Shown: positions 309-20,333, counted from the stretch's first letter. The stretch is 32,000 nt of DNA from Erysipelothrix larvae (GCF_001545095.1 NZ_CP013213.1:1380001-1412000), one strand, 5' to 3'. Program-made: numbers and translations. The notes: generated by a model from the letters alone, not told the origin.

Positions 309-1148
309 TCACCAATTCTTCAAGAAGTTCGCATTATTACTAATTACAACTTCTTTTCCAAGGGAGCTTCGACCAGCAGTGTGCATAATACTGTATTTGA
401 TTATTATAAACCGATTATAAATTAAATTAATTAATTCACAATCATCATAAGTAATTATCCATTGCCCATCTCCTAAATGTTGAGTAATTACATCCTTCAA
501 TTCCACATGATCATTTTCCATAAAATAGTTTTTATATAATTGATGTCCTTTATTAACATACGGTGGATCAATATTGTAAAACAAAGTATCAATTCGTTGA
601 TGGAGTTCATTAATTATCAAATCACTCGCATCTCTGTTAAACAATTCTATGTTTTCACTAAAGCTAGCAATTAGCTCTATCCTATTTTTTATATTTACCT
701 TATTATAACGACAATCAACTTTATACTTACCTTTTTGGGAAACCCCCCCCATTGGTCCACCCGAAATAACACCCGAATAGTTTACTCTATTTAAATAAAA
801 TGTAGCAAATCCATCATCTAATACAGATGTATCTTCACTTATATATATCGATTTCTGTCTTTCTCTCTCTTCAATTGTCACTGGCGTTTCATCTAAAAGT
901 TTTAGAAAGTTTTCAGTATCATGTATTACGGAATACCAGAAATTATAGATGTGAGAATCAAAATCATTTAGAATTACATTCTGTACAACTCCTTCCACAA
1001 GTAGTGCTAAACCAATTGCGAATCCACCAGCGAAAGGCTCTACATATGTTTTGTCTTGAAGTCCGTTTTCGACAATCAGTTTTTTGACTTTATCGTAAAT
1101 TTTAAATTTACCTCCTGGATATCTCAGTGGAGAAATTGTTTGTTTCAT
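309..1148 (-). CDS. Dam-family (D12 class) N6-adenine DNA methyltransferase; last gene of the helicase operon
   Basis: 279-aa ORF with PLRYPGGK near the N-terminus, SAM-binding EPFAGGFAIG and catalytic NIDPPY, in the order typical of Dam/MethyltransfD12. Its ATG at 1148 lies 2 nt after the helicase TAA (1151-1153). Confidence 0.9.
   Translation of the reverse strand: MKQTISPLRYPGGKFKIYDKVKKLIVENGLQDKTYVEPFAGGFAIGLALLVEGVVQNVILNDFDSHIYNFWYSVIHDTENFLKLLDETPVTIEERERQKSIYISEDTSVLDDGFATFYLNRVNYSGVISGGPMGGVSQKGKYKVDCRYNKVNIKNRIELIASFSENIELFNRDASDLIINELHQRIDTLFYNIDPPYVNKGHQLYKNYFMENDHVELKDVITQHLGDGQWIITYDDCELINLIYNRFIIIKYSIMHTAGRSSLGKEVVISNNANFLKNW
743..750 (-). repeat. G8 homopolymer (C8 on + strand) inside the methylase coding sequence
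   Basis: The + strand reads aacccccccc at 741-750. On the coding strand this is atg ggg ggg gtt, encoding PMGGVS. It is currently in frame. Confidence 0.95.
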
Positions 1149-1150
1149 AA

Positions 1151-4100
1151 TTATTTCCTCTTCTCAACGAGTTTACAATATTCTAAATAAGAATTTGGCA
1201 ACCAATCAGATAAATCTAATGGATTAAAAAATATCATATTGGAAACATTGTCACTTTTTTTCAATAATGCTGGTATAACTTCGATATTATTCAATACTTC
1301 TTTTTTGGCAATTCTTGAGTTTTCTTCGATAAGTCTGAGTAGCGGTTCTAAATAATCTTGTTGCTTGCTTTCACTGTATGGTTGAGGATAAACATCAAAC
1401 TGAGCATAATCTAGTAACTGTAACGCTAAGTCCCTATTAAACAGGTCATGATTTCTTTGGTTCCAATAATTATCTAGACAGTTTTTACATGCTCTAGAAC
1501 ATTCACACTCTGTCAAAATTCTCCTTGACTGATCTAGTACTTGATCTAATATTGAACCAATCAATGTAGAGTATCCTGCTCCACTGGATAAATTGTCATA
1601 GAAGAAAAACTCAAGCGATGAATCATCTGCTTTCCCAATTCTAGGACGCCAACCACCACTAATCTCATTATAGTCAATATCTAAAACTATTGAAATGGAT
1701 TTTTTTAAAACCTCATGTAATGAAGTAGCAGCGGATTTTAGGATTGTTTTCTCATCAATACGACCACTTCCAACAAGTTTCTTCGTATCATAAGAAATAT
1801 CGAGCATAAACATATCAGTTAGAAATTCATACCCTAAAAATATATTCGCTTCCACTGAACCGTTATGTTGACAAACGCTATAGCCATGGTAAGGTTGTGT
1901 TACAGAGAATTTATTTGTAACAAGATCATTGGAAACTTCAGCACCCCCGCATTTCTTACATACGTTAAATCCATTTTTTTGTTTTCCCATATTAACAGTT
2001 AAAACGTTACGATCCGGGAGATTTGAAAACTTTATGTTACTCGATTTATACCGTTGCATTTTGGTATTAGAAGGAACATAAGAATAAAATGGTGCTTCAG
2101 TAAACGTGTATTGTTCATCTTCATCTTCAAACTTTACAGATTGTCCTTTAATGGGTGCAAATCCCCATGGTCTTAACATTTTATTTTTTGTATACTCCGA
2201 TCCACAATAAGGGCAAACAGGGTGACTTGATGATTCATTTTCTAAACCGAACCAATTGCATTCTGAACAGACAAGAATATTTTTGAAGTAATCTCTGTTG
2301 TTAAAATAATATTCTGCTTGATTATCTTCATATCCTTTCGGCTTTGGATTGGAATAAATTCCACCACTTTTATATATTTTTTTGTCAATTGTTATAAATC
2401 TACCGGGAGCATATTCGCTTAAAGCAACAGAAATATCACGATCAGGAGCATATTGAATTTCTCTGTTAGCGCTTTTATAGTTCTTCAAATCTTTTTCAAC
2501 ATAAAACTTAACAACATTCTTTGGGAACGAATATGATGGTATAAATCCTTCTTTATAAAACACATCAAAAACACTAGTTTCTTTATCATTATTCATAAAC
2601 TCCTCCCGTCGATTATGAAGAATAATTGTATCATAGATTTCATTAAATAACTTAATAGTACTCACGGTAGACACAGAATTCTTCAACTCGAAGTCTTTTG
2701 CATATTCAATAAACAATGATCCGTATTTCTCACAAAAAGTTATAATTCCTATATCCATTATTCCATCATACTTTGTACGCATTCCATCACTCGACATAAA
2801 ACTATTAATCACTAACATATTAATATGACGTTGTTTAATTTTGTGGTTCATTCGATCTATCCATGGTTTTCGTGGGGCACCAGATATCATTTCCTCAGGA
2901 TTAGAAAAATAATGACTATCGTGGGTTCCACCAGATGCAAAAGTAACAATCGTAGAAATACCCGAGTTAGTTCGCCCTGCACGTCCAGCTCTCTGTTGAT
3001 AGTTTTCTCTCATCGGTGGTATATTTCGTAACCCAACAGCAGTAAGTGAACCAATATCGATCCCAACTTCCATAGTTGTAGTGCAACTTAATACATCAAT
3101 GGAATCTTCCCCATTTTCACCAGCTGTGATATCTTGAAACTTCAATTCATATTTCTCAGTGTTGCTTCGACTATTACTTCTCGGTTCTTTATGTGAAAGT
3201 TGTGCAGTATGTTCCTCTGTTTCAATTGTCTGAATTTTCTCTTGAGTTTCTAGAGCTCTTATAATAGGTTTGCGCCAAAAATCAAATCGAGTCAAATCAT
3301 CATTACCAATAATCTTTAGATCGACTGACTGATAACAAGCAGCACATTTATCTCCTAACTTAAAAGGAGATAATTTACCACAGTGCATACATTTATACCA
3401 AGGAAATTCTTCACTAGTAAACTCAATTCTTACCTTTCGCAAATTAATATAGTATTTACTCTTTTTTGAGGAATCAAAGAAACAATCCCGAATAATGTCC
3501 AATAATTCTTGAGTTTGGTTATCACTTATATTAAATAGACTTTTTGATGTATCTACAAGATTTTTGTCCAAAGACTTAATAAAATCAAAATCTAACCCAA
3601 AATCATTATTCATACTTCTCCCTGGAAGACCTCGTCTCACATCATCATCAATAGTATGTCCTAATGCTGCTTCACCATCCATCACATCCCAAAATAGAGT
3701 AACTAAAAACTGATAAAACAAATCACTATCAATTATAATGTCATTCTCTTCCAATTCCTCAAGACATTCATCTAGTAATATTGATTTTGGGGCTAAATAC
3801 CCAAGCCCAATATCTTTAAATGAACGAGGACTTTCTGTAAAGAACGTTAAAAGTTGCTCATAGTATTGATCAGGAAGTTCTTGAAAATCAGATACAACAT
3901 CTAAAAAATTAAACACATTACCTTTGTTTTCAATTCTTGCTTTTCTTCTTGAAAACTTTCTTTTTTGATCTTGAAATAATAACTTACTAGACCCGTTAAA
4001 AAAACTAAGTTTATTATCTGCGCACACTTCTAAGAAAGCTGGATATAACTCAGCTAGGGAACATTCGTACGAAGCAGTATTTGCTCTTAATGAAGCTAGT

Positions 4101-6370
4101 AATATTGCTTTTCTGAAAGCATCAGCATCTGATGACTTCGATAAATCTAATGCTAGTTTTGCAGCGATTTGTCTTGAATCAGAAAAAAGAAGCACTTTTT
4201 TCCCTTGGTTAATTAAATTAGATTTTGGAGTTTGTAATTCAAACTGCGCTTTAGTTAGATTATAGAACGGGATATTTCCCTTTGTAGATAAATCAGAAGG
4301 TTTTTGTAACCTCATTTGTTTCTTGCATTTTGGACAAACATTAAAATTATATGACTTTGATTTCGTATCAAAGTCATCAGTATAAATAACGGTCAGTAAC
4401 CCATCATCATCCTGTGGTGATAAATACAATTTACCAGTATACGGATCAAGTGCTCCAATATTATCTTTTGATCTTCGATGATATCCTTTGGGAACAATAT
4501 ATAGAAGCATCTCATTTAGTGAATGTACATCTCCACTCAATCCTCTTTTTGGAAATGTATACCAAAATGACTCCCCTTCATTTTTCTGAATGTATACTCT
4601 TAGATACAAACCACCACATTTTCTATGATTTAGAATTTCATAAACTTTTCCGTTGCATTCACATTTTTCCTTAGGAATAGCGATTACTTTTCCTATTGGA
4701 AGTTTTTCTTCAGAAGAATACTTTGCATACTTACATTTTGGATTAGTGCATGCATACAAACCTTGTAAACCTCTTAAGAACATATGTAATCTTACTGGAA
4801 AAAGAACATTTCCATTTTTTGTTGCTAAGGAAGCAACTACAAGTAAAGAGTCTAATGCTTTATCTGAATTTGGATGATTCCCAAATAATTCTTGTTTAAT
4901 AGTGCTGTAGGATTTTGCCCCATCTCGACATATTTCGTTTAGTTTCACAAATGCTTCATATCTATACAGATTATCATATAGCCAAGTTTGTAGTTCTTCT
5001 TGATTCATATCTTCGTTCAATTCTTCATTATAAACTGATTTTGAAAATGATTTAATTCTATCACTAATTTCATTACCATGAACTTGACTAAATCCAATAG
5101 AGACTAAAGCATCAACATTTGTTTGGATTTCAAAACTATTTGAAATTGATTTTTTTGTGCCATATAAGAATTCACAATTATTTGCAGGTTTACCAGTTAA
5201 ACCTTCATAGAAAGCATTGATAGCTTCAAATTCCTCTTTAGGCATACTTGCAGTTGTTAAAATATATTGAACTTGACTTAATGAAATATCTAAACGAGAG
5301 TAGAGTCGTTCAAGTAGCAATGCAATCTCTCCCCCGGAAGATCCTCGGTACATATGTGCTTCATCTAATACAATTAGAAGTTTATTATCTGTAGATTCAT
5401 GAAGCCAGTCTTTTGTTTGATCCCAAATGTTTGCCTCGCGCTGTCTCATCAGCATAAATTCTAACATTGAGTAGTTTGTGATGAGTATATCTGGCGGACA
5501 AGCTTGCATCTCAAATCTTGTAATCAATTCGGCATCAAATGGATCCGTCTCATGAATGTTTCTAGTTAAATTATCGACGAATTTTTCAAGTCCATCTTCA
5601 CCATACCTTGCAGGATACTTATTAACAGATTTTAAGCCTTCAATATCCAAGATTTTCTTTTCTCTATCTGAAGTACGAAGATCGTCCAACAAATACTCTT
5701 TCCTAAATACTTCTGCTAGCTCTTTACTGTTTTGAGGTGTTTTTTTCCCTGGTGATGGTGTTCTGCCGGTGTACATTCCAAAATGAGGAATACGCTTTGC
5801 TTTCGTATCCTCGGTAAATATTTCTTTAAATTTCTCACTTCCAATATTTTTTCTAAATCTCGAAAGTTGATCAGAAACTAGAGCATTCATCGGATATATA
5901 ATTAGAGTCCTAACAGCATTTCTTTCAAAGCTTCGTGGTTTATTCTTAGCTTCATAAAAGCTTTTTGAAATAATTGGCCATAAAAAACATTCTGTTTTCC
6001 CTGAACCAGTTCCTGTTGAAACAAATAAATCTTTTCCTTCCATAAATAATTCCAGAGACTTAACTTGGTGTTCGTATGGGTTTTCATAAATTCCTAAATT
6101 TGCATCAATTAATTTCACAAGTGAACTCTTAATATTATTATCTAAAGCTGCTGATAAACGAATTCCATCATATGATTTTTTATAAGACGCTGATGTCTCG
6201 ATATATGGTTCCTGCGATATACTGGTGTGTTCCGAACAAAACTCCCCCAACAAATCCTCTTCATATAATAATAATGTCTCGCTATTTGCCAAATAATCCG
6301 ATTTAATGTAATCTTTCAAACGAAGCCTAATTGATTCATAATATTCTTTTACTCCAACTGAATTACTCAT
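1151..6370 (-). CDS. Giant DEAH-box helicase with multiple zinc ribbons and a C-terminal DUF1998/MrfA-type Zn domain (DruE-like)
   Basis: Walker [13 protein letters not shown] (~5989-6024) and motif [14 protein letters not shown] (~5341-5380). MrfA/YprA-like [11 protein letters not shown], and helicase-C motifs [13 protein letters not shown] and [12 protein letters not shown]1998 signature [23 protein letters not shown] (~1443-1512). I place the start at ATG 6370, preceded by AAGGAG with an 8-nt spacer, rather than the track ATG at 6388. Confidence 0.85.
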
Positions 6371-6371
6371 A

Positions 6372-7385
6372 TTATATTTCTCCTTCATAAATTACAATTC
6401 CTATATCATTTAATACACTCCCAACAAATGGCAATGCTTTATTAATAATGATGAAACTACTTTTATCAAATGCGTTACTAGCAGGCCATGCAAGGAGTAA
6501 AAGTAAGTAATATTCTCTATTAGGCAAGTGACCCTCAAATGACAATATAGAATAATTATTATCCAATCTTCTAACTCTAGCTCTCAACGGATTATCATAT
6601 AATGACTTCAATGCAAAGTAGTCTCTACGATACTCATACGCTGTTAATGATCCATTCCTTTCATCTTCAATCATTTCTGCAAAATAGAAATCATTATTCC
6701 GGTTAATTACTCGGTAGTATGTTCGTGTTTTGATTCTACGCGCTATAGTAAATTCTGTGTTTGGACTTTTTTCCCAAGAGCTTGACGGCGATTTTTTCGA
6801 GAGGGGATTGAAGAACTCAAGCTCGTTAATATCAATTTCTTTTAGAGAGAAATCGCTAGAATCGAAATTACATAAACAATATTCTTGTGGACTTAGTGTG
6901 TCTCTAATTAAAAAGTCCTTAGTCTCAACTGGTAATACTATTGATTTTGGTGTAGTTAACACACCTAATCCACTAATTTCGTACCGTATATTTGGAAGTC
7001 CCAACATAATTGCAAAATCATTATCAAATATTAATCCATCACCAAAGTTTGAAACTTGTAACAAATTGGCATTTGTTAACGTCAAATACCCTGTTTCTAA
7101 ATAGACTGTTTGAATGTGTAAGGATAGTTTTACACTAGATTCAGAATAAAGAATATTTTCTAATACTGGGAACAAATCAATATACTTTGCTATTAACTCA
7201 TTTAAAGCAATCGAAATATGGTGTTTCGTCACTCCATCCATTTCATTAATTTTACTAGCTGCAATTGTTAAGCACCATTGACCTAGTGCAGAATAAATTA
7301 CTCTAAATACATAAGAGTCATAGCCTTCATTTTTATAGCATGGGATGTCCATAGACATTCCCATTTTCTCAATCATATCTTTCAT
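6372..7385 (-). CDS. Hypothetical protein, third gene of the operon, no recognisable motif
   Basis: Long ORF in an operon context. ATG 7385 forms an ATGA start/stop overlap with the upstream gene (TGA 7384-7382), so I prefer it to the track start at 7424. Its TAA (6374-6372) lies 1 nt before the helicase ATG. Confidence 0.75.
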
Positions 7386-8971
7386 AATAAAAACCATTCC
7401 ATTAGCTGTTTCCTTATATAGCAATTTCCGGTAAATCCAGCATATTTGACCAATCTTTCTGACTCATTAAAAGGAGAAATATTGGCGACATCCACACTAT
7501 ATGGCAATATACTAAACGCTAATTTGCCACATAAATCCTCTTCATTGCTAATATGATTACATTGAATCATAGCAAATCCTTTATTGTTATATAATTCAGT
7601 GATTATTTCTGTGATTACCTTAGTGGTTTTACGTTCTTGTTTTTCTTGACTAAATATATTTTCTACTTCATTAACCTGAGATGAGTTAGCAGTTAGACTA
7701 ATACAAGCAGATAATTGACTAAATCGATTTACGTTTAGATATTCAACAGTATTCAAGAATTCAAAAGGGACGTAATTAAGTGTCTTATCATATGTTACCA
7801 TTAAGAAAATTATTTTATTCTTATTGTTTTCAAGGATCGAAAATAATTCAGTTTCGTTATAGTTGCCAATGAAATCAACTAAACACTTAATTCTTCCATC
7901 CAAATTCAAGAACGTTTCTATTTCATTACTTCCTATTCCATTCGAATAATTTAACATCTGAATATCCTGGTGTCCAACTAAAGCATTGGAAATACATTTA
8001 ACAAGTAATGATCCCGGTACTCGATTCAGTACTATTGGTTTTCCCAAAAACAGTATCTTTGTAAGATGATGAATCAATAATCGCTCTAGATCTCGATCAT
8101 CAGATAGTAATATATTTCTAAAGTTATCCAATAAGTAGTCAGAAAACTCTTCCATATCAACTGGGACTAATGGTACGTTAGATTCTTGTTGTTTTCTTTT
8201 AATTATTAATTGAATTTTATTCTTGTCAAACCCGATTGGATATTTGAGTGTCCTTGTCCCATTAATTAGTTGTCTTAGCTTTTCCTCATATTGACAAATT
8301 ATATTTTCAAGGTCATTAGTTTTTTCTCTAAGCTCAGCATTAATTTTTTCTTTCAATATTATCTCATCTTCCAGTTTTAATAGTTCTTTTTTTTCCTTTT
8401 CTATTCGCCCAATCTCAATCAATAATTCATTATTCTTTTCTTTAAGATTTTTCTCTGATTTGAATGACACTTCAATTTTTTTGTTTAGTTTTTCTTCCTC
8501 AATCCTGTTCGAATCATTAAGTCTTTGTAATTTCTTAATTTCATCAAGATGCCCTTTTGATATTGTAATCGCATGAGTGATAAACTCAATTTGATCATTA
8601 GTTATCTCAGTTTTGCTATCATATAATTTGAAAAACAAGGGAATATTATCCGAAAAGATACTTTCTGGTAAAACACGGATAAATGATATAAATTCTTTTT
8701 CACTCTTTTCAGTGTTAGGTGTTAATTCAGTTTCAATGTCATTTATCCATATACTAATTATTTGGTCAATAAAAGTAGCTATAAATGAATTTGACTTGTT
8801 TCGTATAATCAAGTCAGGACTTATCTTATCGATTGACTCAGGTCTAAACCCTCTAAATATTTTTGAGAATTGTTTTGAATTCCTCTTGGAATAGTCTATT
8901 CGAACCTGCTTCGGAATTTTACCCCAAATATATTTTGTTTCTTCATCTGTCAATAAACTTACATAATTCAT
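7382..8971 (-). CDS. Hypothetical protein with a central charged coiled-coil-like segment, second gene of the operon
   Basis: 529-aa ORF with a K/E-rich heptad-like stretch (EEEKLNKKIEVSFKSEKNLKEKNNELLIEIGRIEKEKKELLKLEDEIILKEKINAELREKTNDLEN). Its ATG 8971 overlaps the upstream TGA (8970-8968) as ATGA. Confidence 0.8.
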   Translation of the reverse strand: MNYVSLLTDEETKYIWGKIPKQVRIDYSKRNSKQFSKIFRGFRPESIDKISPDLIIRNKSNSFIATFIDQIISIWINDIETELTPNTEKSEKEFISFIRVLPESIFSDNIPLFFKLYDSKTEITNDQIEFITHAITISKGHLDEIKKLQRLNDSNRIEEEKLNKKIEVSFKSEKNLKEKNNELLIEIGRIEKEKKELLKLEDEIILKEKINAELREKTNDLENIICQYEEKLRQLINGTRTLKYPIGFDKNKIQLIIKRKQQESNVPLVPVDMEEFSDYLLDNFRNILLSDDRDLERLLIHHLTKILFLGKPIVLNRVPGSLLVKCISNALVGHQDIQMLNYSNGIGSNEIETFLNLDGRIKCLVDFIGNYNETELFSILENNKNKIIFLMVTYDKTLNYVPFEFLNTVEYLNVNRFSQLSACISLTANSSQVNEVENIFSQEKQERKTTKVITEIITELYNNKGFAMIQCNHISNEEDLCGKLAFSILPYSVDVANISPFNESERLVKYAGFTGNCYIRKQLMEWFLL

Positions 8972-10413
8972 AACTTACCCTCTAATATATATTGCTTTAC
9001 AACGGTATTAATCTGTTTTTTCTCATAACAACCATATACATATTTTTTTGCTTCTTCACAAATTTCAAATCCATCAAACTCACCATCTCTTATACATTCT
9101 GTTCTTTTATAATATTTCAATATATCTGCTAGAATTAGTTTTTTTGAATTTACTAGTCTTTGTCTTGGGTAAACAACACCACATAATCTATTACCTGAGT
9201 AGCACTTGATCGTACTCCCTTTTGTCAAGATAACTTTCTGTCCACTGTTTAACTTATGTACACCTGAACTGTTAAATAAATGATACGACTCTGAACCAGT
9301 AAAAGAAGGAACCTTAAATATTGATGCTTCGTGTTTAGAAAATGTAATTTGATCAAAATCAGTCGAGGTATCTTGATGCGTAGCTAGTACAACATCGATA
9401 TTCTTTGAATTTATTCTCAAATCAGAATCAAAACATACTCTAGTAATCCCTTTTTCATGCCTTCTAATATTATCTTCATCTATATTTATATTTCGTCGAA
9501 ACTTTAGGTCAAATGATGAGTAAAGATATGAAAAATTAGTATTAACTAAGTATTTATTATTCTGATTTATTGCAGGAGGCCATAACAATGTTAGTGTTTC
9601 AGAGTCTTCTAATTCATATCCCCAAGATCTAATAAGATTCATTACTTCTTGACTTCGTTTTGTAAACCTAACAACCCGACCTATAAAATTTCTATCCAAC
9701 GTCCTAAAATAAGTTGGTAACATTGGTGTTTTAATTTCTTGTGGATAATTAATGTCCATTGGTGAAGAGTAGAGTTCTTGATAAGTAATAAAATATGGTA
9801 TATTTGTATACAAAGTTTTACTTAATACAAGTTTCGCCTTATACTTGGGCTCGTCTCCTAACATCTTAAAAAACGTAGGTCTGCTATTTGAATTGAAGAT
9901 TTTTTTAACATCCGAGTAATTATAGTAGGGATTTGAAAGCTCATATTGGTTTGAAAAAAAATCAACTTCTATCTTCGCTACTGAGTTTGGAGAAAAGAAT
10001 GTATGATTAATTGCAACCTTCTTTTTTTGACTTTTGTTATAGTGATTATATATTATAAGGTGTGAACGTTCTTTCTCAAATTTTGATATTTCTTCATCGG
10101 AAAAAGTAACTCCAAAATAAAAAGATTTGTTAAAATTATTATAATAAAAATCGCACTTTATTTTCTTTTTTTTCGGAAATAAATGTACTAATTTAGAATT
10201 ATCTAAATGGCCTAAATACTTCTCACATTCAATGTCGTTATTACCATTTCGATGGCGGAAATGTGCTACCATACTACTACTATCCGCAGCCGCAATCTTT
10301 ACTTCTTCACCACAATGTAAGCACTCATAACGAAGAGGTTCATAATCACTATTATCTTCCACAGAATCTGCAAATACTGAAATCTGAAGTACCGAATCAA
10401 ACGCTTTCAGCAT
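8968..10413 (-). CDS. Hypothetical protein with an N-terminal Cys/His zinc-finger-like module, first gene of the operon
   Basis: Long ORF. The module is CLHCGEEV...HFRHRNGNNDIEC at 10228-10323. The track GTG start (10425) lies inside the AGGAGG Shine-Dalgarno (10425-10430), so ATG 10413 is the likelier start. Confidence 0.8.
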   Translation of the reverse strand: MLKAFDSVLQISVFADSVEDNSDYEPLRYECLHCGEEVKIAAADSSSMVAHFRHRNGNNDIECEKYLGHLDNSKLVHLFPKKKKIKCDFYYNNFNKSFYFGVTFSDEEISKFEKERSHLIIYNHYNKSQKKKVAINHTFFSPNSVAKIEVDFFSNQYELSNPYYNYSDVKKIFNSNSRPTFFKMLGDEPKYKAKLVLSKTLYTNIPYFITYQELYSSPMDINYPQEIKTPMLPTYFRTLDRNFIGRVVRFTKRSQEVMNLIRSWGYELEDSETLTLLWPPAINQNNKYLVNTNFSYLYSSFDLKFRRNINIDEDNIRRHEKGITRVCFDSDLRINSKNIDVVLATHQDTSTDFDQITFSKHEASIFKVPSFTGSESYHLFNSSGVHKLNSGQKVILTKGSTIKCYSGNRLCGVVYPRQRLVNSKKLILADILKYYKRTECIRDGEFDGFEICEEAKKYVYGCYEKKQINTVVKQYILEGKL

Positions 10414-10563
10414 TCTGAATAACACCTCCTAATATAAACATATTTTTTTCAGTTAAAGTAAAGAAATATATACTTGAATTCTGTCCAAGCCAGAATAAAT
10501 AGTTTGAGTTTTAATCAAAACTAAGTATAAGAAATGGCATTAATAAATAATTTAAACTTCCAC

Positions 10564-10598
10564 TGTAATAAAATATAATCCTATTATATTTTATTACA
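10564..10598. promoter_or_regulatory. Perfect 16-bp inverted repeat (tgtaataaaatataat-cct-attatattttattaca), operator-like
   Basis: The arms at 10564-10579 and 10583-10598 are exact reverse complements with a 3-nt spacer. The repeat overlaps the predicted -10 of the operon promoter. Confidence 0.6.
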
Positions 10599-10611
10599 TA
10601 GATTAAATCAA
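10583..10611 (-). promoter_or_regulatory. Putative sigma-A promoter of the helicase/methylase operon
   Basis: Minus strand reads TTGATT (10611-10606), a 17-nt spacer, then a perfect TATAAT (10588-10583). This is about 170 nt upstream of ATG 10413. Confidence 0.45.
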
Positions 10612-10782
10612 CACCACTATGAAAGCGATTTCTTAAATTATAGTAGATTTCATAGGATAAAATACTTTGTTTAACACGATGAGGCAAAAAAAAAGGAAGC
10701 TTTTCTTTTAGAATTAAGTTTCAAGACAAAATCTAAAGGCGACTTCCAATATACAATTCTATCATATTTATTGTGCATTAAA

Positions 10783-10905
10783 ATCTTGCTCTCAGACAGT
10801 GTTGGTAACGAAAATAAGTGATTAGCCATATATGAGGCATTTTGTGTCGATTTTAATACAGTTGAGGTGACCTCTAGATGTGAATAAGTCCATCAATATC
10901 TCCAT
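10783..10905 (+). repeat. Copy 1 of a ~123-bp direct repeat (partner at 24118-24241)
   Basis: A hand alignment to 24118-24241 gives about four-fifths identity. Shared blocks include atcttg(c/t)tctcaga, ttagccatatatga, tcgattttaataca, cctcta(g/a)atgtgaata and tctccat. Confidence 0.8.
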
Positions 10906-10918
10906 GAAACATTTTTTT

Positions 10919-10970
10919 TGTATTTGATAATCTAAAAGTGGTCCAATTCTCAATTGAAAACTGGTCCACT
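10919..10970 (+). repeat. IS21 left terminal inverted repeat
   Basis: The sequence tgtatttgataatctaaaagtggtccaattctcaattgaaaactggtccact aligns without gaps, with a few mismatches, to the reverse complement of 12998-13049. Confidence 0.8.
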
Positions 10971-11031
10971 ATTTTTATAACTTCAGAAGTGTGTGATAAT
11001 GCTTTTGGAGGTGAAAGAGGTGATATCACAA

Positions 11032-12318
11032 ATGAGCAAATATTCAATTATCACATTAAAAAAGAAAGGATGATCTAACAGAAAGATTGCCCTTGAATTG
11101 GGTATAGACCGAAAGACGGTCGCACGGTATCTTCAGGAATATAATAAATGTCAAATACAATTGATTGATAATCATGGTTTATCAGACGAAAGAAAAGTAG
11201 AAGTCATTGATCAAATTGTTGGGGACCGTCACTATGATGCAAGCAAACGAGGTAAGCGCAAGTTAACGCAAGAAATTCAAGCTTCACGAGAAACATTTAT
11301 TCGACAAGATTATCGATATGGTGAGCGGTTAGAGTTTGACTTTGGAGAAGTAAAGCTTTTAATTAATGGTGAACCAAGAACATATTATCTCGCTGTTTTC
11401 TCATCACCAGCAAGTGGATATCGGTATGCATATTTATATCCAAACCAACGCAAACAAGTATTCATAGATGCACATGTTCGCTTCTTTGAGCATTCTAAAG
11501 GCTCTTGGGGTGAAGTTGTATATGACAATATGAGAAACGTCGTGAAGCGCTTTATAACGCCTTATGAAAAAGAAATTAATGATGATTGCCTCAAACTGGC
11601 ACTCTATTATAATTTTGAAATTAACCTGACTAATATACGAAGTGGTCATGAAAAAGGAAGTGTAGAAAACAGTGTTAAGGTAATTCGAAATCGTGTATTC
11701 GCAAAGGACTATAAGTTTGAAACATTTGAAGAGGCATGTGTTCATCTTGAACAGACTCTTGATGAAATCAATATAAAGAGTTCAATCGAAGATGAAAAGA
11801 AAGAACTTCAACCTTACAGAATTCCTTATGAATTCGCTGATATCGAAGTATATAGTGTTGACAAGTATGGTTGTATACACGTTGAAAATAATTTTTATTC
11901 AGTCCCAGACTATCTCCAACACAAAAGAGTTACGGTCAAAAACACCGTAAATTCGATACGCATCTATTCAAATCACACATTTGTGTACGAACATAAAAAG
12001 ATAGATGGTCACCATCAATATCAGCTTGTGTTGGACCACTATCTGAATACAATGATGACTAAGCCGGGATCTGTAAAGAATTCACTTGTCCTAAAACAAC
12101 ATCCTGAGCTTTATAACATCTACCATAATCATTATAAAACAAGAACTAAAGAGTTCATAGAAATTCTTCAAGAAAACAGGAATGAAACGTATAAAACGCT
12201 CAAAGATGCTTTAAAGTATCGGTTGGTTTCAAATGCAATTGACACCGTTGAGTATGATGACAGCATACAAGAACAATCACGTAAACAACTTAAGAAAATA
12301 AGCCAATTAATGCACTAG
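11032..12318 (+). pseudogene. istA: IS21 istA transposase interrupted by an in-frame TGA in the N-terminal HTH
   Basis: ATG 11032 gives MSKYSIITLKKKG, then TGA at 11071-11073. The same frame continues SNRKIALELGIDRKTVARYLQEY (HTH) into the 406-aa track ORF, which has the DDE-integrase-like core. The track ORF itself starts at a TTG. Confidence 0.75.
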
Positions 12319-12329
12319 GAGAAAAATTA

Positions 12330-12989
12330 ATGGAAACAGTTGAACAATTGTCAAAAGAATTAAAACTTTCATTCATAAAAACACACTATGAAGCAGCAAT
12401 ACAGGAAGCGAAACACAAAGGATTGGATTTTCAAGAATTTCTTAACGAACTGCTTTATTGCGAACGAAACAATCGTCGTGACAACGGAATAAAACAACGC
12501 ATTCGTGCTGCTCGATTTCCTCAAAACAAGACATTGGAGGATTTTACGACTGTAAAATTTAATTCAGAATTAAAACGAAAGTTTAAAGAACTGGAAACAT
12601 TGAACTTTATAGAAAATAAAAAAGTGCTATTTATCAGCGTTCCTAATCTAATTATAGAGTTAAAAGAAGCTATGTCAAAAAATCAAATTACGCAATACAA
12701 AAAGAAGTTTGAAAAATTTGATCTAGTAATTCTTGATGAACTCGGCTATGTGTCATTTGATAAAGAAGGAAGTGAAATTCTATTCAATCTAATTTCAAAT
12801 AGAATAGCAGTAGGTTCTATGATTATTACAACAAATTTAATGTTCGATAGATGGGAAGAAATATTCAAAGATCCCATTCTAACAACTGCTCTAGTCGACC
12901 GATTAACCTATAAATCACATCTATTAAATATGAGTGGAGAGAGTTATCGTGTTGAAGAAACAATTGCTTGGCTAAAGAGCAAAGAATGA
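12330..12989 (+). CDS. istB: IS21 IstB helper ATPase lacking its Walker A segment (probably non-functional)
   Basis: IstB-like motifs are present: DLVILDELGY (Walker B), ITTNLMFDRWEEIFKD and ALVDRLTYKSHLL. The sequence jumps from FIENKK directly to VLFISVPNL (junction ~12621-12626), where IstB proteins normally carry GxxGxGKT. It is 219 aa, against the ~250 aa I recall for IstB proteins. Confidence 0.75.
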   Translation: METVEQLSKELKLSFIKTHYEAAIQEAKHKGLDFQEFLNELLYCERNNRRDNGIKQRIRAARFPQNKTLEDFTTVKFNSELKRKFKELETLNFIENKKVLFISVPNLIIELKEAMSKNQITQYKKKFEKFDLVILDELGYVSFDKEGSEILFNLISNRIAVGSMIITTNLMFDRWEEIFKDPILTTALVDRLTYKSHLLNMSGESYRVEETIAWLKSKE

Positions 12990-12997
12990 CAAACGGT

Positions 12998-13049
12998 AGT
13001 GGACCAGTTTTCAATTGAGATTTGGACCATTATTCAGTTGACAAATACA
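12998..13049 (-). repeat. IS21 right terminal inverted repeat
   Basis: The sequence agtggaccagttttcaattgagatttggaccattattcagttgacaaataca is the reverse-complement partner of 10919-10970. Confidence 0.8.
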
Positions 13050-13107: not shown

Positions 13108-14298
13108 TTATGATTGCACCCACCTTAAAAATCTATATCCAATCTCTTTCCATTTAGTTGGATTACAATTTACACAATCTCCAATTCTTCTCATTATTGA
13201 TTCATTAATATAGAGTAAATGCTTTAGATTACGATAAGATGTATCAATGTCTCCAACAATAAATCGTTCCTGATGTTGATAGTGTAAATTATTCCTTAAT
13301 ATTTTTATTTGTTGAATGTCCTCTTCTTTTACATCAGAAATTAAACTAATGAATATTTTCTTCATTTCATTATTCTGACTCTTAGAGATAAATCCCTGGA
13401 TGTTATCAATAGTTTCATCTAGATGGATAGAAATCATTTTTCGATAAAAATATACTAGATATGGCACTTCTTTGATGTATTCTCCTATATCAACTAAGTA
13501 GGTAAAGAATTCATAAATTGAAGATGTAACATCGAGTGCAATGATTAATCTATCAATTTCTCTCTCTCCCAAATCCTTGTTTGATTTTATAATATCCGAA
13601 TAAGAATAAGGAATCCACTTATAGTTTGGTTTCTCAGGAGCTTTCCTTATATTGAAGATATCAGTTTTTGCAAAACAGATATTTTGAATTAATCGTAATT
13701 GTAAAGTCATAGATTTTACGAAAGTATCATTTTTAATCTCCTCGTGTACATATTCAAATTGGTTTGTACCAATCATGTATCTACACTTGTCAATTATTTC
13801 AAAGTGCAAACATATATCTATGTAAGGATTCTTTATATCTCGGGATCTACCCATTCCTGTATCAATCATTGTCAACTTTTTATTGAAGTCGCTGAATCTG
13901 AATTGATGCAAATTATTCCTTAATCTGGTAAGCATTGAAATGTATGTTGAACTTAATCCATAAAAATCTCCTTTTTTCACTATTCCAGGTTGCAAAATTA
14001 GTTTGTTAAATTCACTAAGAATTATTGAAAATAGTTCAATTATCAAATTATTCGATTTCCTAATATCATTTATATTCTTTCTACTGACATTTGTATTGAA
14101 AAAATTCAAAATTGTTATTAAACCTAAACAATCTAAGAGACATGAATAAAGAGATAAAGTATTTGAATAAATAATCTCTGGATTGGATAATAATTCTTTA
14201 AAAAATTCAAAAAATATTTCAATATTCAACTCTTCTGGCCCATCTTCCCTTATTGTATCTCCATTAAAATTGGATTTATCATAATCATCAATCATCAC
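13108..14298 (-). CDS. Orphan hypothetical protein with a duplicated LRNNLH motif (possible HEPN-like, unproven)
   Basis: 396-aa ORF isolated between two IS elements. RNNLH is encoded at 13906-13920 and again at 13282-13296 with near-identical codons (aggaataatttgcat / aggaataatttacac). The start is ambiguous (GTG 14298 or ATG 14295) and the Shine-Dalgarno is weak. Confidence 0.7.
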   Translation of the reverse strand: MMIDDYDKSNFNGDTIREDGPEELNIEIFFEFFKELLSNPEIIYSNTLSLYSCLLDCLGLITILNFFNTNVSRKNINDIRKSNNLIIELFSIILSEFNKLILQPGIVKKGDFYGLSSTYISMLTRLRNNLHQFRFSDFNKKLTMIDTGMGRSRDIKNPYIDICLHFEIIDKCRYMIGTNQFEYVHEEIKNDTFVKSMTLQLRLIQNICFAKTDIFNIRKAPEKPNYKWIPYSYSDIIKSNKDLGEREIDRLIIALDVTSSIYEFFTYLVDIGEYIKEVPYLVYFYRKMISIHLDETIDNIQGFISKSQNNEMKKIFISLISDVKEEDIQQIKILRNNLHYQHQERFIVGDIDTSYRNLKHLLYINESIMRRIGDCVNCNPTKWKEIGYRFLRWVQS

Positions 14299-14582
14299 AA
14301 TTACTTATTTTTCCTAGTATGATAATGTTGTTCATAATCTTACCCATCATCACATCCCTTTCTATTAACTTTTTTTCTGAATTAGACACGATTACAATGT
14401 GAAATGTAAATTTAGTTATCGCCTTAAGACATGACTTCTTACGAAACGCTGCAACCACATCTTTAACGTCAAATGGTAATGAGCAGGATGGATTTTTTGA
14501 ATCTTTATAGCAAGCTAGGTAACTAACGTGACTGCTTTTGGAACAATCATTTCATAAACCATTCAGAAAGTTGGTAGTTCTT

Positions 14583-15746
14583 ATGATTCTCATTGGTATT
14601 GATATCCCTTAGTGTAATCATATCGTCTCATTCATGAGTTCTTATGGCGAAGTACTTCCACACTGCACAATTCAAGAATAATCGAGAAGGATTCAACCTA
14701 CTAAGTGTTATCATCAAACCCTTCAAAATCCAACACTATTTCATCGATTTTGAATCAGCTGGTCACTATGGTGACAATCTAATCCGTTACGTAGTCGGCA
14801 AAGACTATACTGTTGGTCTCATCAATCCTTTGACCACGGATGCATACCGTAAAAACGGAAATTCGAAAAACCAAGCCTGATTAAGTCAATTCCCTGACCA
14901 TCTTGTTGTGAGTGATGGTTACTTCTTTCAACTCTATGTTTATCAAACATGCGGGAACTGAAATATCTGACCAGCTACTATACACGCCAGAAACACAACC
15001 AGTCTTAGCTTAAAATTATCGTTCGAGGTCATTTTGATATTGGCTAACCTGAATTCATTGACTTCTTTTCGGATGCTTCAGCAATGCTTCTAAAGAGCTT
15101 TTTTCAACAGGCTTGTACTGCTAAGGAAGTCTCTGAACTTCACCTGAAAAAGATCACGAACCTGCTTCACCAGGATTCTAGTGACCGACTTAAGAAAGAG
15201 AAAACGGAGTCTCTTATACAAACTGCTTCATCTTCAGTCGGCATCCATGAACTGTCACTAAAGTTTGAAATCAAACAATCCATTGATTAACTTGAACTTC
15301 ACAAGGAACAGTTGGATGAAGTAACAAAAAGATAGAAGTCCTGAACTCTCAAACACAAACTTCTATCTTATCAATCCCAGACATTGTAACAGTAAAGTGA
15401 TTAACCATTCTATCAGATATAGGGGATATCTCTCGTTTCTCCAGTGCATCAAAGTTCTTAGCTTATGTAGGGTGTGGTCCATCCATTTACCATTCTGAAA
15501 CTAATCAAGCGGTCAATAGCCGCATATCCGAACTGGGAAGTCAGCATCTTCACTATGCGTTGTATAATGCAGTTTTTATTGTAAGCCAGTTTGAATCTGC
15601 CTTTAATCCATATTATAAACGAAGTGAGAACATAGAAAGTCTCTCGCAATACTTTGGATCATGTGGCTAATAAACTTTTTAGTGTACTCTATAAATTGTC
15701 GTGAGAAAAAGTCATGTTTGATGCTTCAATAATCGGACAAAGTTGA
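14583..15746 (+). pseudogene. IS110-family transposase, multiply frameshifted or stopped
   Basis: Fragments lie in different frames. They are MILIGIDIP*, GEVL..., KNNREGFNLL...FESAGHYGDNL...GLINPLTTDAYRK (DEDD N-domain), DIGDISRFSSASKFLAYVGCGPSIYHSETNQ...GSQHLHYALYNA (Transposase_20-like) and LDHVANKLFSVLYKLS*EKVMFD. Confidence 0.7.
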
Positions 15747-15789
15747 TTTAGCATTGTACTCTCAATTTGATAAAAATCTGAAAACATAA

Positions 15790-16320
15790 GTATCAACTAC
15801 CATACACTAATTGAAATTTAACAATTGTTTTTCCATCTAAGGGTAATTCAACAAAGACGCTTTAAGTTCTTGTTTGTCGCATTGGTCAAAGAGTTAATTG
15901 CATCATTTTTTTCGGAACTTTGTTTTCCAACTAACTCCCAAATTAATGTCTTCATAATCATAACTATTATCATGATTAATAAAAGCTAGTAATACTTCAA
16001 ATTGAATTTCATCAATTAAAGTGATTCCAATAACATGTCCATCTGCTTTTGTATGAGATATGCTATATGTTTTCTGTAAAACTGTTTTACCCCTTATAGT
16101 AATGCAGATTGTCCATTTCCTGAGTAGTTATTAAACTTAGAATAAGTCTCGTATGGAAGTAATATCAACACATCAATATCACTTTTGTGAATCTCTGTTC
16201 CCGTCCACAAAAACCAACATATAATCTGTTCATTGTGTCCGATGTAGAATTAAGATAATTCAAATTAAGCCTTTGTGCGATCAGTTTAAACTTTTTGCTG
16301 GATGGATGATACAGATTCAT
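15790..16320 (-). pseudogene. SMODS/CD-NTase-like nucleotidyltransferase relic (CBASS-type synthetase family), frameshifted and 3'-truncated
   Basis: Minus-strand fragments across three frames: MNLYHPSSKKFKLIAQRL..., GTEIHKSDIDVLILLPYETYSKFNNYSGNGQSALL, GKTVLQKTYS...DGHVIGITL..IQFEVLLAF...GVSWKTKF and NDAINSLTNATNKNLKRLC*ITLRWK. These recall the GSxxRGT...SDxDxxxxLP...NGQSxLL...FEVxPxF...GGxWKxT pattern of this family. The lower boundary is approximate. Confidence 0.5.
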
Positions 16321-16565
16321 TATTGATCCTCAGATTTGAACAAAACATATTAAAATCATTCCTACTTCCCATTTATCCTTGCTAATACTACTTCAATAAT
16401 CTCTTACAATACTAGACAGTATTTTCCTTTATTTCTTTAAGGTTTATCTAGTAAATTCTGTTGGAAAATTCCGTTTGGGATTTATTTTATTTTTGAATCC
16501 AAACAATTAGCGATTACACATTCTAACACTTTTTACTGCATTATCGATAAACTATTAGTATTCAT

Positions 16566-17243
16566 CTAGAAAATTGATATATCCCAAGACGTAATGATTC
16601 CAAGCAACGACTGATTTTGTGATCCGGACTCTGTTACTAATAAAACCTTTAAGTTTAATATTTCTTTAAACATACGATGTATTTCGCTAAAATTTTGATG
16701 CTTGCTAACAAATCTAAAGTGGTTTCTATTTTCATCGTTATTTATCACGTCATTTATCCTTGTTTCTTGAATTGAAATGATATCTGTATCAATAGAATTA
16801 GCCAGCCAGTTACTAATTCCGTTATCAGTTAGTAAACCCACTAATTCATCATCCCGATAAATAGGAAACTGACTTATCCCTTTATCTTTAATACATCTAA
16901 GTGGTTTTGTTATCTCATCAGTAATATCAAACTTAATGATTTGTTTGCTCATAATGCTTGATGCTGTCACATCAACCGGTATCATATGTAATGTATTTTC
17001 TAATATTTCAATTGCTTCTTTACTTACTTCAAAATATTGACTAGACGTTCCATGTGATAAAGCATTTCTGATCTCCCTTAATTTATTTAAAGTTACAGTA
17101 TTTCTCTTTATAAATAAATCGTTACTTTCATTGATTTTTTCCTTCAGACTTTTATCATGGTTATACGATAAAGAATTAATATAATCTTCAAGAATTTTAA
17201 ATCCTATAATAAATTGATCATTCCTATTAGTATTGTTCTGCAT
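16566..17243 (-). CDS. HEPN (Rx4H: RNALSH) plus CBS-domain protein appended to the type I R-M operon
   Basis: LREIRNALSHGT is encoded at 17052-17069. The C-terminal half has CBS-like strands (ISQFPIYRDDELVGLLTDNGISNWL ... LLGIITSWDI). I prefer ATG 17243, preceded by AGGAGAG, over the track start 17273 that abuts the hsdM stop. Confidence 0.7.
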   Translation of the reverse strand: MQNNTNRNDQFIIGFKILEDYINSLSYNHDKSLKEKINESNDLFIKRNTVTLNKLREIRNALSHGTSSQYFEVSKEAIEILENTLHMIPVDVTASSIMSKQIIKFDITDEITKPLRCIKDKGISQFPIYRDDELVGLLTDNGISNWLANSIDTDIISIQETRINDVINNDENRNHFRFVSKHQNFSEIHRMFKEILNLKVLLVTESGSQNQSLLGIITSWDISIF

Positions 17244-17273
17244 AATAAACTCTCCTATTCGCGACAACTTCAA

Positions 17274-18902
17274 TTATTCAATACTTAACAAATTCATTAA
17301 CTTGTTTAGCTCTTCTTTTGCTTCGTCAGTGGTTCCTTCCAATTCTTGTAGTATACTAAATAGATTCATTGATGACTCTTGAACCTTTTTTCTTGCTTGA
17401 ACTAACTCTTGAGCAACTTGCGACAACGGGATTACTTCTTCTTCTTCAAATGTATCGACATATCGTGGAATATTTAAATTATAATCATTGCTTTGAATTT
17501 CTTCCAACGTAGCAACGTGAGCGTACTTGTCAATGTCCACTCTATTACTATAGGCTTGGACTATTTTATTAATGTTGGCTAATGATAATTTGTTTTGATT
17601 CTTACCTTTTTCAAACTCATTTGATGCATCGATGAACATAACATCAGTGGTTTTCCGTGCCCCTCTTCCTTTAAACACTAATACACATGTAGGAATACTA
17701 GTTCCATAGAACAGGTTCGCTGGTAAACCAATAACAGCATCCAGAAGATTATTGCTGATAATATTTTGTCGTATTCTTCCTTCAGAAGCTCCTCTGAATA
17801 ATACACCATGAGGCAAGACAATTGCCATCGTTCCTTTACTACTTAAGTGATAGAGTCCATGTAGTACAAAAGCATAATCCGCCTTTGAACCTGGTGCAAC
17901 TCCAAACTCTTTAAATCGAGCATCTTTTTCTCTATCTGTACCTTTTATATCCCACTGCTGAGAATAAGGTGGATTTGCGACAACTGCATCAAATGTAAGC
18001 GGAAGCTGAATCCCATTATTTTTATCAAATGGCCAATCTTCTGAAAGGGTGTCAGCCCTTCTGAGTTTCATATTCATATATTGAACACCATGCATCATTA
18101 AGTTCATCCGTGCTAAGTTATAAGTTGTGGTGTTGATTTCTTGCCCGTAAAACTCCACGCTTCCAACTCGTTCACCATAAGGAAGTTCTTTTTGAACTGT
18201 TAGCAGTAATGAGCCAGAACCCATAGTAGGGTCATAAACGCGAAATTGTCCGTGATCCTCTGTAGCATTCAAGGTAACTAGTTTTGCTAAAACTTGACTT
18301 ACTTCATGAGGTGTATAAAACTCCCCACCTTTTTTCCCTGCATTAGCAGCGAATTGTCCAATTAAGTATTCGTAAACATCACCTAGAATGTCTTTGCCTG
18401 AACTATCCTTAAAATTAAACTCATTAATCATAAGAACGATATCATTTAATGCCTTTGCTCGCTCATTCGTGCTAGTCCCAAGACGAGAATCGCCCAGATT
18501 CACATCAGAAAAAACATTAGCAAAATCAATTTCAGCAATTTCATTTCGCTTTGCATTCTTACTGAATGATTCAAACATATCTTGGAAATCACTTGCTTTG
18601 ATTTTGTGGTTATCAATTCTAGACACAATTTGCTCCCAAATGTATTGAGGTTCAATGACATATCCGATTCCTTTACTAACCTCTACAAGATAATCCTCTA
18701 ATTCTTCAACATCTGTTACACTATAATAATCTTCAAGAGCATTCTGTTTCAGATAATTATCCTGATTTTCAGACAAGTATCGATAAAACATAAAAGGCAA
18801 GATATAATTCTTATATTCACTTGCATCCATGGTACCTCTTAGTTTATTTGCCATAGACCATAATTTAGCTGTTACCGAAGTAGTATTATTACTCATTTTC
18901 AA
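17274..18902 (-). CDS. hsdM: Type I restriction-modification methyltransferase subunit M
   Basis: 542 aa with an HsdM_N-like N-terminus (LWSMANKLRG, YKNYILPFMFYRYLS). It has SAM motif YDPTMGSGSLL and catalytic VVANPPYS. Confidence 0.9.
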   Translation of the reverse strand: MKMSNNTTSVTAKLWSMANKLRGTMDASEYKNYILPFMFYRYLSENQDNYLKQNALEDYYSVTDVEELEDYLVEVSKGIGYVIEPQYIWEQIVSRIDNHKIKASDFQDMFESFSKNAKRNEIAEIDFANVFSDVNLGDSRLGTSTNERAKALNDIVLMINEFNFKDSSGKDILGDVYEYLIGQFAANAGKKGGEFYTPHEVSQVLAKLVTLNATEDHGQFRVYDPTMGSGSLLLTVQKELPYGERVGSVEFYGQEINTTTYNLARMNLMMHGVQYMNMKLRRADTLSEDWPFDKNNGIQLPLTFDAVVANPPYSQQWDIKGTDREKDARFKEFGVAPGSKADYAFVLHGLYHLSSKGTMAIVLPHGVLFRGASEGRIRQNIISNNLLDAVIGLPANLFYGTSIPTCVLVFKGRGARKTTDVMFIDASNEFEKGKNQNKLSLANINKIVQAYSNRVDIDKYAHVATLEEIQSNDYNLNIPRYVDTFEEEEVIPLSQVAQELVQARKKVQESSMNLFSILQELEGTTDEAKEELNKLMNLLSIE

Positions 18903-18917
18903 TTTTCTCCTTTATAT

Positions 18918-20111: not shown

Positions 20112-20268
20112 GATATCACCATACCTTTCAAATTAAAATAATTAACCAGTTAATAAGGAATTGAAATATTTGCTCATTATTTCGATTCAATTCCAAATGC
20201 TATACAGAATATAAATATATAACTCATTGACTAGATAAACTAAGTTAATTAATCGTCTATACATTTTA

Positions 20269-20277
20269 ATTATACCA
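20269..20277 (-). promoter_or_regulatory. Possible extended -10 (TGGTATAAT) internal promoter for hsdS-hsdM
   Basis: The minus strand reads tgtagaTGGTATAATtaaa within the 222-bp hsdR-hsdS gap. I see no good -35. Confidence 0.35.
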
Positions 20278-20333
20278 TCTACACAGTTTGATTTGAGCGT
20301 ATAATTTACTTAATATACAATATGTAACATAAG

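Follow-up and report, generated by a model that had tools for sequence, protein, structure and literature searches.

Does a tightly packed five-gene operon on the chromosome of Erysipelothrix larvae encode a new defence system or a known one in an unfamiliar composition, and what does the DNA methylase at its end contribute? The operon lies on the minus strand at positions 309-10413 of a 32,000-nucleotide (nt) stretch (GCF_001545095.1, NZ_CP013213.1:1380001-1412000), the whole of which is called the window below. An earlier sequence-only reading of the window had described a coupled operon of three unrecognisable proteins, a giant DEAH/DUF1998 helicase and a D12-class N6-adenine methylase, matching neither Druantia nor DISARM, and had proposed it as a candidate for an undescribed system or subtype. 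The analysis reported here assigns the operon with high confidence to the type I Druantia family, as a lineage that lacks DruA and bears a methylase. The fuller explanation, a distinct and conserved type I Druantia lineage that combines DruB-, DruC- and DruD-like proteins and DruE with a D12 methylase and dispenses with DruA, is regarded as probable rather than firm.

All five genes are intact, and direct reading of the four junctions bears out the proposed coupling. ATGA stop/start overlaps join druB to druC (8971/8968) and druC to druD (7385/7382), the druD stop (6372) is followed after 1 nt by the druE ATG (6370), and the druE stop (1151) is followed after 2 nt by the methylase ATG (1148), with purine-rich, Shine-Dalgarno-like GGAG/GAGG sequences ahead of the latter two starts. 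As judged from these junctions, the five genes are predicted to form a single transcribed and translated unit. The ATG taken as the beginning of the druB-like gene, at 10413, is also the NCBI start, the alternative being a GTG at 10425. The 308 nt of non-coding DNA 3' of the methylase gene contain no open reading frame (ORF). In what follows, a prime marks the B, C and D proteins of this lineage.

Two of the three supposedly unrecognisable proteins are readily named. The 481-amino-acid (aa) product of the first gene matches the PADLOC model PDLC00003 (DruB1) over profile positions 1-477 of 477 (E=9e-230), and the 337-aa product of the third gene matches PDLC00008 (DruD1) over positions 1-336 of 338 (E=8e-152). 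Both are lineage-specific models; the canonical type I proteins match others, namely PDLC00002 (DruA), 00005 (DruB), 00006 (DruC) and 00009 (DruD). The model common to the canonical lineage and that of the window is DruE1 (PDLC00013), to which the window helicase aligns over positions 2-1774 of 1776 with 1950 bits, compared with 2300 bits for the canonical Ralstonia DruE. Three proteins of the operon therefore fall within type I Druantia models, contrary to the statement that it matches neither Druantia nor DISARM, and the placement of two of the three partner proteins as DruB and DruD speaks against an undescribed system. The third partner occupies the DruC position and shows a weak, collinear match to DruC.

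The helicase gives the clearest link to canonical Druantia, being the only protein for which BLAST detects clear similarity between the lineages (30-32% identity over 96-97% of its length with the Pseudomonas and Haloplanus DruE proteins of DruA-containing loci). Pfam confirms the DEAH/DUF1998 architecture that had been read from the sequence, with DEAD (E=6e-20), Helicase_C and MrfA Zn-binding MZB/DUF1998 (E=9e-12) domains. As a YprA/MrfA-like superfamily 2 helicase, it retains an intact Walker A motif (GTGSGKT), DEAH box and C-terminal DUF1998 Cys cluster. In the PDB, its homologues comprise chains 9tu7 and 9wae, both DruE-like (E about 1e-70), and MrfA (6znp), and the PADLOC models for DruE of types II-IV, DpdJ and DrmA match it partially or weakly. 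No active nuclease domain was recognised by PADLOC, Pfam or Foldseek in any of the five operon proteins. Type I DruE has been described as ending in an inactivated Vsr-like domain and as lacking the active PLD nuclease domains of type III-A (Bell et al. 2025).

For DruB' and DruD', the relationship to the canonical proteins emerges from profile comparison. DruB' has a Zn-ribbon (CxxC...HFRH...C) at its N-terminus, and the rest of the protein is an all-beta body that resembles immunoglobulin (Ig)-like domains in tandem; its AlphaFold 2 model (mean predicted local distance difference test score, pLDDT, 77) is beta-rich, and Foldseek returned weak matches to tandem Ig-like domains. BLASTP found no similarity between DruB' and canonical DruB, and hhalign aligned the two in the N-terminal Zn-ribbon only (CxxC...HFxH...CE; E=3e-6, probability 88%). 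An exhaustive profile search of 1.84 billion proteins yielded 213 representatives of the DruB' family, none of them a canonical DruB; the family is genuine, if limited in size. Among plasmids, tblastn detected no match to DruB'. Weak matches to CoiA_N/DUF7830 raised the possibility of a CoiA-like nuclease, which is unsupported, since the Zn-ribbon alone matches and the remainder is all-beta and Ig-like. DruD' aligns with canonical DruD over 267 collinear columns that include the conserved LPxRE (hhalign, E=0.012), and BLASTP reaches E=6e-4 at this motif. Sequence and profile searches with DruD' gave no Pfam or PDB match.

The 529-aa protein in the DruC position, identical to AOC36_06465 of E. 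larvae, has no PADLOC, Pfam or NCBIfam match, even at E<=10. A helical domain at its N-terminus is followed by a long coiled coil (about residues 125-236) and, at the C-terminus, by an alpha/beta domain. In an AlphaFold 2 model made from a 7-sequence alignment (pLDDT 81), a single helix spans about 110 residues and leads through a disordered linker into the C-terminal alpha/beta domain. Foldseek relates this last domain to the AAA+ ATPases BchI (6l8d) and RavA (6q7l) with probabilities of 0.97-0.98 and E-values of 0.02-0.07, and further to spastin and RFC with E-values up to 0.1, whereas a PDB sequence search with the domain profile returned nothing useful. DruC' contains no GK[ST] Walker A motif, the expected P-loop position reading LGKPIVLNRVPGS. 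The model thus hints, weakly, at a degenerate AAA+-like fold. Against canonical DruC, hhalign gives 236 collinear columns with a shared PGFR motif (E=0.003, probability 10%), and the PADLOC DruC1 model is touched weakly, inside the coiled coil, by 9 of 45 DruC' orthologues. The gene lies between druB and druD in every complete related locus.

The last gene encodes a D12-class (Dam-family) N6-adenine methyltransferase, as had been proposed and as Pfam confirms (MethyltransfD12, E=7e-23), with the S-adenosylmethionine-binding FAGG and catalytic DPPY motifs both kept. Its PADLOC matches are PD-Lambda-5_B (E=2e-98, full length) and MTase_II (E=4e-74), and the nearest solved structures are 7m6b and DpnM (2dpm). 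FxGG and DPPY are likewise retained in all 41 of the 41 methylase homologues examined. Among the 47 related loci with enough sequence to be informative, 38 carry the methylase gene immediately 3' of druE on the same strand, mostly at a spacing of -4 to +23 nt, and four carry a homologous gene 0.7-2.5 kb upstream of druB instead. No restriction partner gene follows the methylase in the window or in the three metagenome loci L001, L003 and L005, and PADLOC and Pfam identified no endonuclease family among its neighbouring genes. In two loci (L011:3711-6313 and L024:3577-6300), the upstream methylase is paired with a protein of 565-591 aa, which in L011 is an AAA_15/AAA_21 ATPase.

Conservation of the neighbourhood, the check that the sequence-only reading had called for, was established in 54 other loci: 51 species-level genomes, found by a DruD-profile scan of one genome per species, and three metagenome loci. 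The hosts are mostly Bacillota (Bacilli, Clostridia, Negativicutes and Tissierellia), together with a few assemblies labelled Deltaproteobacteria, Bacteroidota and Spirochaetes and with Candidatus Auribacter. A synteny script recovered the order B-C-D-E in every complete locus. The three metagenome relatives of DruC' (29-38% identical) stand in the same five-gene arrangement within completely different flanks, with products of about 480, 530-570, 335, 1720-1740 (DEAD/MZB) and 280 aa (MethyltransfD12). Recurrence of this gene order in more than 50 further genomes and metagenome contigs shows that the arrangement is not due to chance. The distance matrices of DruB, DruC, DruD and DruE are mutually correlated at r=0.93-0.96, and mean identity within the lineage is highest for DruE (70%) and lowest for DruB and DruC (about 39-40%). 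Between the methylase and DruB-E, the correlations are r=0.56-0.63, values reached in 0 of 999 permutations; the lower values indicate that the methylase is mostly co-inherited with the operon and exchanged more often than the core genes. The module is conserved and horizontally mobile. In one metagenome-assembled Bacillota genome (L009:5039-6667), a gene with a TnsE_C domain lies just upstream of druB, and the Druantia operon there may be cargo of a Tn7-like transposon.

What sets these loci apart from canonical type I Druantia is the exchange of one gene for another. The DruA1 model matches no ORF upstream of druB in the window, and a hidden Markov model (HMM) made from five DruA sequences gives no match at E<=10, either in the window or within 10 kb in the 54 related loci. 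The canonical loci sampled come from Escherichia coli, reached via DruA DNA, and from P. putida, R. solanacearum, N. watsonii and Haloplanus, reached by a tblastn search of plasmids with DruE. In all five annotated loci, DruA heads the operon and no methylase follows druE; in E. coli, RefSeq names the genes druA-druE, and the system occurs in 64 of 5426 complete genomes. A methylase HMM found nothing in 80 DruA-anchored metagenome loci on their upstream side; these loci mostly end at or just past druE, so that the absence of a downstream methylase is read from the five annotated loci. In the sample examined, DruA and the D12 methylase are mutually exclusive: all loci reached via DruA or a close DruE match, among them 54 metagenome loci, have DruA and lack a D12 methylase. 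As side observations, DruA is unusually conserved among Pseudomonas, Ralstonia and Nitrosococcus (74% identity), and a four-gene layout of DruA, proteins of about 955 and 363 aa and a DruE of about 1850 aa (L062, L084-L143) is commoner than DruABCDE in the DruA-anchored metagenome set.

To what extent, then, is this lineage new? For PADLOC, the proteins of the loci that Doron et al. listed were clustered at 30% identity, with one model per cluster. The existence of separate, near-perfect DruB1 and DruD1 models therefore points to the presence of this lineage in the original type I list, and by this argument the original Druantia dataset of Doron et al. probably did include it. Some awareness of the lineage may exist, but no description of a DruA-less, methylase-bearing Druantia composition turned up in the literature searched. 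The layout does differ, as the sequence-only reading had stated, from DruABCDE, DruMFGE, DruHE and DISARM, with DruA absent and a D12 methylase added. Of its twofold suggestion, the new system falls away and the undescribed subtype remains defensible. An NCBIfam scan gives no Druantia name to any operon protein, and DruC' escapes PADLOC, so tools that require DruA and DruC may under-call such loci as incomplete Druantia.

Two alternatives concern the identity of the operon as a whole. It could be an ordinary DruABCDE locus that lost druA through insertion of an IS21-like element, the methylase being incidental. A defective element of this kind, 490 bp upstream of druB, does occupy the very position expected for druA, and just past it is a 396-aa ORF of DruA-like size. 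This ORF, considered as a DruA separated from its operon by the insertion, matches no PADLOC, Pfam or NCBIfam model and no DruA HMM. All 54 of the 54 relatives lack DruA, and none has this insertion sequence among its called genes. Moreover, DruB', DruC' and DruD' cannot be aligned by BLAST to the canonical proteins, which indicates a deep lineage rather than a recent deletion, and the explanation is effectively refuted. Alternatively, the operon could be an undescribed defence system that has only a DruE-like helicase in common with Druantia. The absence of DruA, a 529-aa protein that no defence HMM recognises, and the self-contained DruB' family with no BLASTP similarity to canonical DruB would fit this view. 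It is nevertheless very improbable: the type I DruB1 and DruD1 models are matched at full length with very high scores, DruE falls in the type I model, DruB1 and DruD1 were built from the Druantia loci of Doron et al., among which the lineage was probably filed as type I, and gene order, protein sizes and collinear B, C and D profile matches agree with type I.

Given a type I Druantia lineage, a working scheme can be proposed. The methylase would modify adenines in a host-specific motif and so mark resident DNA as self. DruE, as suggested by its homologues MrfA and the characterised type III DruE, would act as an ATP-driven 3'-to-5' helicase that loads on single-stranded DNA or forked replication intermediates of unmarked phage DNA; the type III homologue has been shown to unwind in this direction. 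The predicted folds suggest that DruC, with a coiled coil and a dead AAA+/McrB-like module, may serve as a scaffold, and that DruB (Zn-ribbon plus Ig-like domains) and DruD may be sensor or adaptor subunits licensing DruE on unmarked DNA. As no active nuclease is recognised, the system may work by blocking replication or by recruiting nucleases of the host.

A link between type I Druantia and methylation is made plausible by two reports at preprint level. According to a preprint (10.1101/2024.04.14.589459), E. coli type I Druantia adds a new N6-methyladenine (m6A) motif yet "lacks a methylase domain", and Druad1, a phage inhibitor, exerts its effect through changes in phage m6A; a passage in Loeff et al. 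cites phages that escape type I Druantia through an encoded methyltransferase. That the methylase provides self-marking for the system, a claim drawn from its sequence and setting, is put at an even chance. A stronger version, in which the methylase is an obligatory self-marker that functionally replaces DruA while canonical DruA supplies or directs an equivalent mark, is offered more tentatively, as possible but doubtful.

Several observations weigh against the proposed explanation. The homology scores for DruC are weak (hhalign probability 10%; Foldseek E-values above 0.01). Five of the 47 informative loci have no nearby D12 methylase, and tblastn detects no remnant there. Co-evolution of the methylase with the operon (r about 0.6) is looser than that among B, C, D and E (about 0.95), and in L011 and L024 the upstream methylase may form, with its partner, a two-gene module of its own resembling PD-lambda-5. 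In canonical type I Druantia, defence operates with no recognisable methylase, which means that the core machinery does not strictly depend on one; with no nuclease found among the operon proteins, the "restriction" step lacks an identified enzyme; and the defective IS21-like element so close upstream of druB makes expression in E. larvae itself putative.

Some of these points would equally suit a passenger methylase, which would travel with the operon but take no part in its working: either a Dam-like orphan or the half left over from an adjacent module resembling restriction-modification (R-M) or PD-lambda-5. Its best PADLOC match, PD-Lambda-5_B, belongs to another system, it is missing in five loci and displaced upstream in four, the 565-591 aa neighbour in L011 and L024 could be its real partner, its distances correlate only moderately with those of the Dru proteins, and canonical type I Druantia functions without it. 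On the other side stand the same-strand placement 3' of druE in 38 of 47 loci across several phyla and amid unrelated flanks, which would be hard to maintain without selection for co-expression, the lack of any partner gene 3' of the methylase where this was inspected, and its strict absence from loci with DruA together with its presence in DruA-less ones. A mere passenger is therefore judged unlikely, though not negligibly so. The methylase could also be part of the system in another capacity, whether as a signal for phage or replicating DNA, in epigenetic regulation of the operon, or as protection from a co-resident nuclease. Such roles would suit an operon in which no nuclease needing a protective mark was found, as well as type III Druantia, which recognises DNA structure and not modification. 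Set against them, methylases coupled to defence operons, of the D12 class in type II R-M and of other classes in DISARM and BREX, are known as self-markers in every characterised case. In addition, the m6A-dependent evasion of type I Druantia in the preprint reports cited above fits marking, and a non-marking role appears decidedly unlikely, more so than a passenger.

The locus is of interest less as a new system, which it is not, than as a natural experiment on how type I Druantia separates self from non-self. Type I Druantia was reported to act most broadly among 33 defence systems when these were challenged with 263 E. coli phages (10.1101/2024.04.14.589459). Yet the partner proteins of the canonical system have no assigned biochemical activity, and the Druantia-dependent m6A reported in the same preprint has no methylase to explain it. 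The present lineage appears to have lost DruA and gained a recognisable Dam-like methylase whose motifs are intact. The consistency of this exchange in more than 50 genomes leads to the hypothesis that type I Druantia tells self by DNA methylation. If the stronger version is true, with the methylase in the place of DruA, type I Druantia in general would be an epigenetic self/non-self system akin to R-M or BREX, based on a helicase and without a dedicated nuclease, and a mark supplied or directed by DruA would account for the Druantia-dependent m6A in E. coli. Experiments would also be simpler in this lineage, whose five genes include one with a known enzymatic activity, as predicted from motifs.

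Upstream of druB, the IS21-like element interrupts no Dru gene and leaves a leader of 490 nt to druB; its istA is frame-broken near the N-terminus in an A-run around 11060-11100, and its istB encodes 219 aa without the Walker A region. A consensus scan of the leader yielded a sigma-70-like sequence at 10611-10583 (TTGATT-17-TATAAT, 10/12 match), a promoter candidate only, the scan total not being enriched over shuffled sequence. A perfect 16-nt inverted repeat (TGTAATAAAATATAAT / ATTATATTTTATTACA) at 10564-10598 overlaps this best candidate and could be an operator. At the position of this repeat upstream of druB, other loci carry small helix-turn-helix (HTH) genes of two unrelated families. 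Such a gene was considered as a sixth core component and ruled out: nine of 46 small upstream ORFs fall into two unrelated HTH families (five XRE-like, four MerR/excisionase-like), and the remainder are singletons.

The proposed defence-island setting holds in part. The type I R-M operon next door is real (17274-23405), while the "CBASS relic" comes down to a 38-aa fragment with a weak SMODS match. This fragment and part of an IS110-family transposase lie within about 2.2 kb (14300-16560) in which no ORF reaches 90 aa. The defence genes (1-25000) have a GC content of 29-35%, compared with 38-42% in the housekeeping neighbours (25000-31000), which comprise DUF554, acetate/butyrate kinase-like, phosphotransacetylase and aldehyde and alcohol dehydrogenase genes; this step points to a boundary of the island at about 24-25 kb. 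The window contains no tRNA gene. The coordinates of all features are collected in Table 1.

Table 1. Features of the Dru operon and its surroundings, in positions of the window.
Feature	Position	Strand	Remarks
D12 methylase gene	309-1148	-	279 aa, start ATG at 1148
druE	1151-6370	-	1739 aa from ATG at 6370; ORF 1151-6388
druD-like gene	6372-7385	-	337 aa from ATG at 7385; ORF 6372-7424
druC-position gene	7382-8971	-	529 aa
druB-like gene	8968-10413	-	481 aa from ATG at 10413; ORF 8968-10425
Non-coding leader of operon	10414-10918	-	bounded upstream by left end of IS21-like element at 10919
IS21-like element, defective	10919-13049	+	53-nt terminal inverted repeats, 85% complementary
396-aa ORF	13108-14298	-	between IS21-like element and decayed genes
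IS110-family DEDD transposase fragment	14644-14880	+	E=4e-7
SMODS/NTP_transf_2-like fragment	16094-16210	-	38 aa; weak, E 0.03-0.06
CBS-domain protein gene	16566-17273	-	235 aa; starts right after hsdM stop; faint CARF/HEPN-type PADLOC match, E=0.006
hsdM	17274-18902	-	type I R-M operon
hsdS	18918-20111	-	type I R-M operon
hsdR	20334-23405	-	type I R-M operon
Extra hsdS-like gene, half-size	23398-23976	-	overlaps hsdR start

Among known systems, PD-lambda-5, a two-gene (A+B) system in PADLOC, has a B component that the methylase matches closely; the A component has no match in the operon, where the methylase is flanked by druE and non-coding DNA. With type II R-M the operon has the methylase motifs in common, but an adjoining cognate endonuclease is not detected. 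In DISARM, too, a YprA-like helicase and a DUF1998 module occur together with a DNA methyltransferase, and its presumed target is incoming DNA that is unmethylated. However, its DrmA and DrmB are separate, whereas helicase and DUF1998 are fused here in one DruE-type protein, and its methylase class differs from D12. By PADLOC, the DISARM models give weak DrmA matches to the DruE helicase core only (E 3e-12 to 3e-9); DrmB, DrmC (PLD), DrmD, DrmE and DrmM have no match in the operon, and the sole DrmD match in the window is the IstB ATPase of the IS21-like element.

Within Druantia, type II (DruM-DruF-DruG-DruE) also has a DNA methyltransferase coupled to DruE. This enzyme, DruM, has been described as modifying cytosine, in contrast to the D12 adenine methylase found here; PADLOC detects no DruM, DruF or DruG in the operon, and the DruE2 models cover only part of the window helicase (651 bits, versus 1950 for DruE1). 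Type III (DruH-DruE) has a homologous helicase core, represented by PDB entries 9tu7 and 9wae, and the Ig-like domains reported in DruH are loosely similar to the Ig-like beta domains of DruB'. The operon contains neither a DruH match nor a gene of DruH size (about 1100 aa). Type III is the only type studied mechanistically, and no host methylation was observed for it. Bell et al. (2025) group Druantia I and II as "Type IV CoCoNuT" and report that in both the CnuB homologue is McrB-like, inactivated and equipped with an extended coiled coil; the coiled coil and degenerate AAA+ build of DruC' fits an inactivated CnuB, if weakly.

The greatest likeness is to type I Druantia (Doron et al. 2018; the E. 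coli, Pseudomonas and Ralstonia loci L144, L058 and L059), with which the operon has in common the B-C-D-E order, strand, tight coupling, protein sizes and DruE1 helicase, as well as the Zn-ribbon in DruB, the coiled-coil build of DruC, the C-terminal LPxRE of DruD and the setting in a defence island. The differences are equally consistent. Canonical type I loci have DruA (DUF4338) at the operon head and no methylase; here and in the relatives DruA is missing, and most loci of the lineage append a D12 m6A methylase after druE. The DruB, DruC and DruD proteins of the two lineages have diverged beyond BLAST detection, and canonical type I is centred on Proteobacteria, whereas this lineage is centred on Bacillota. 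Taken together, the operon appears to descend from and to work like type I Druantia, yet it is not a canonical member of that type.

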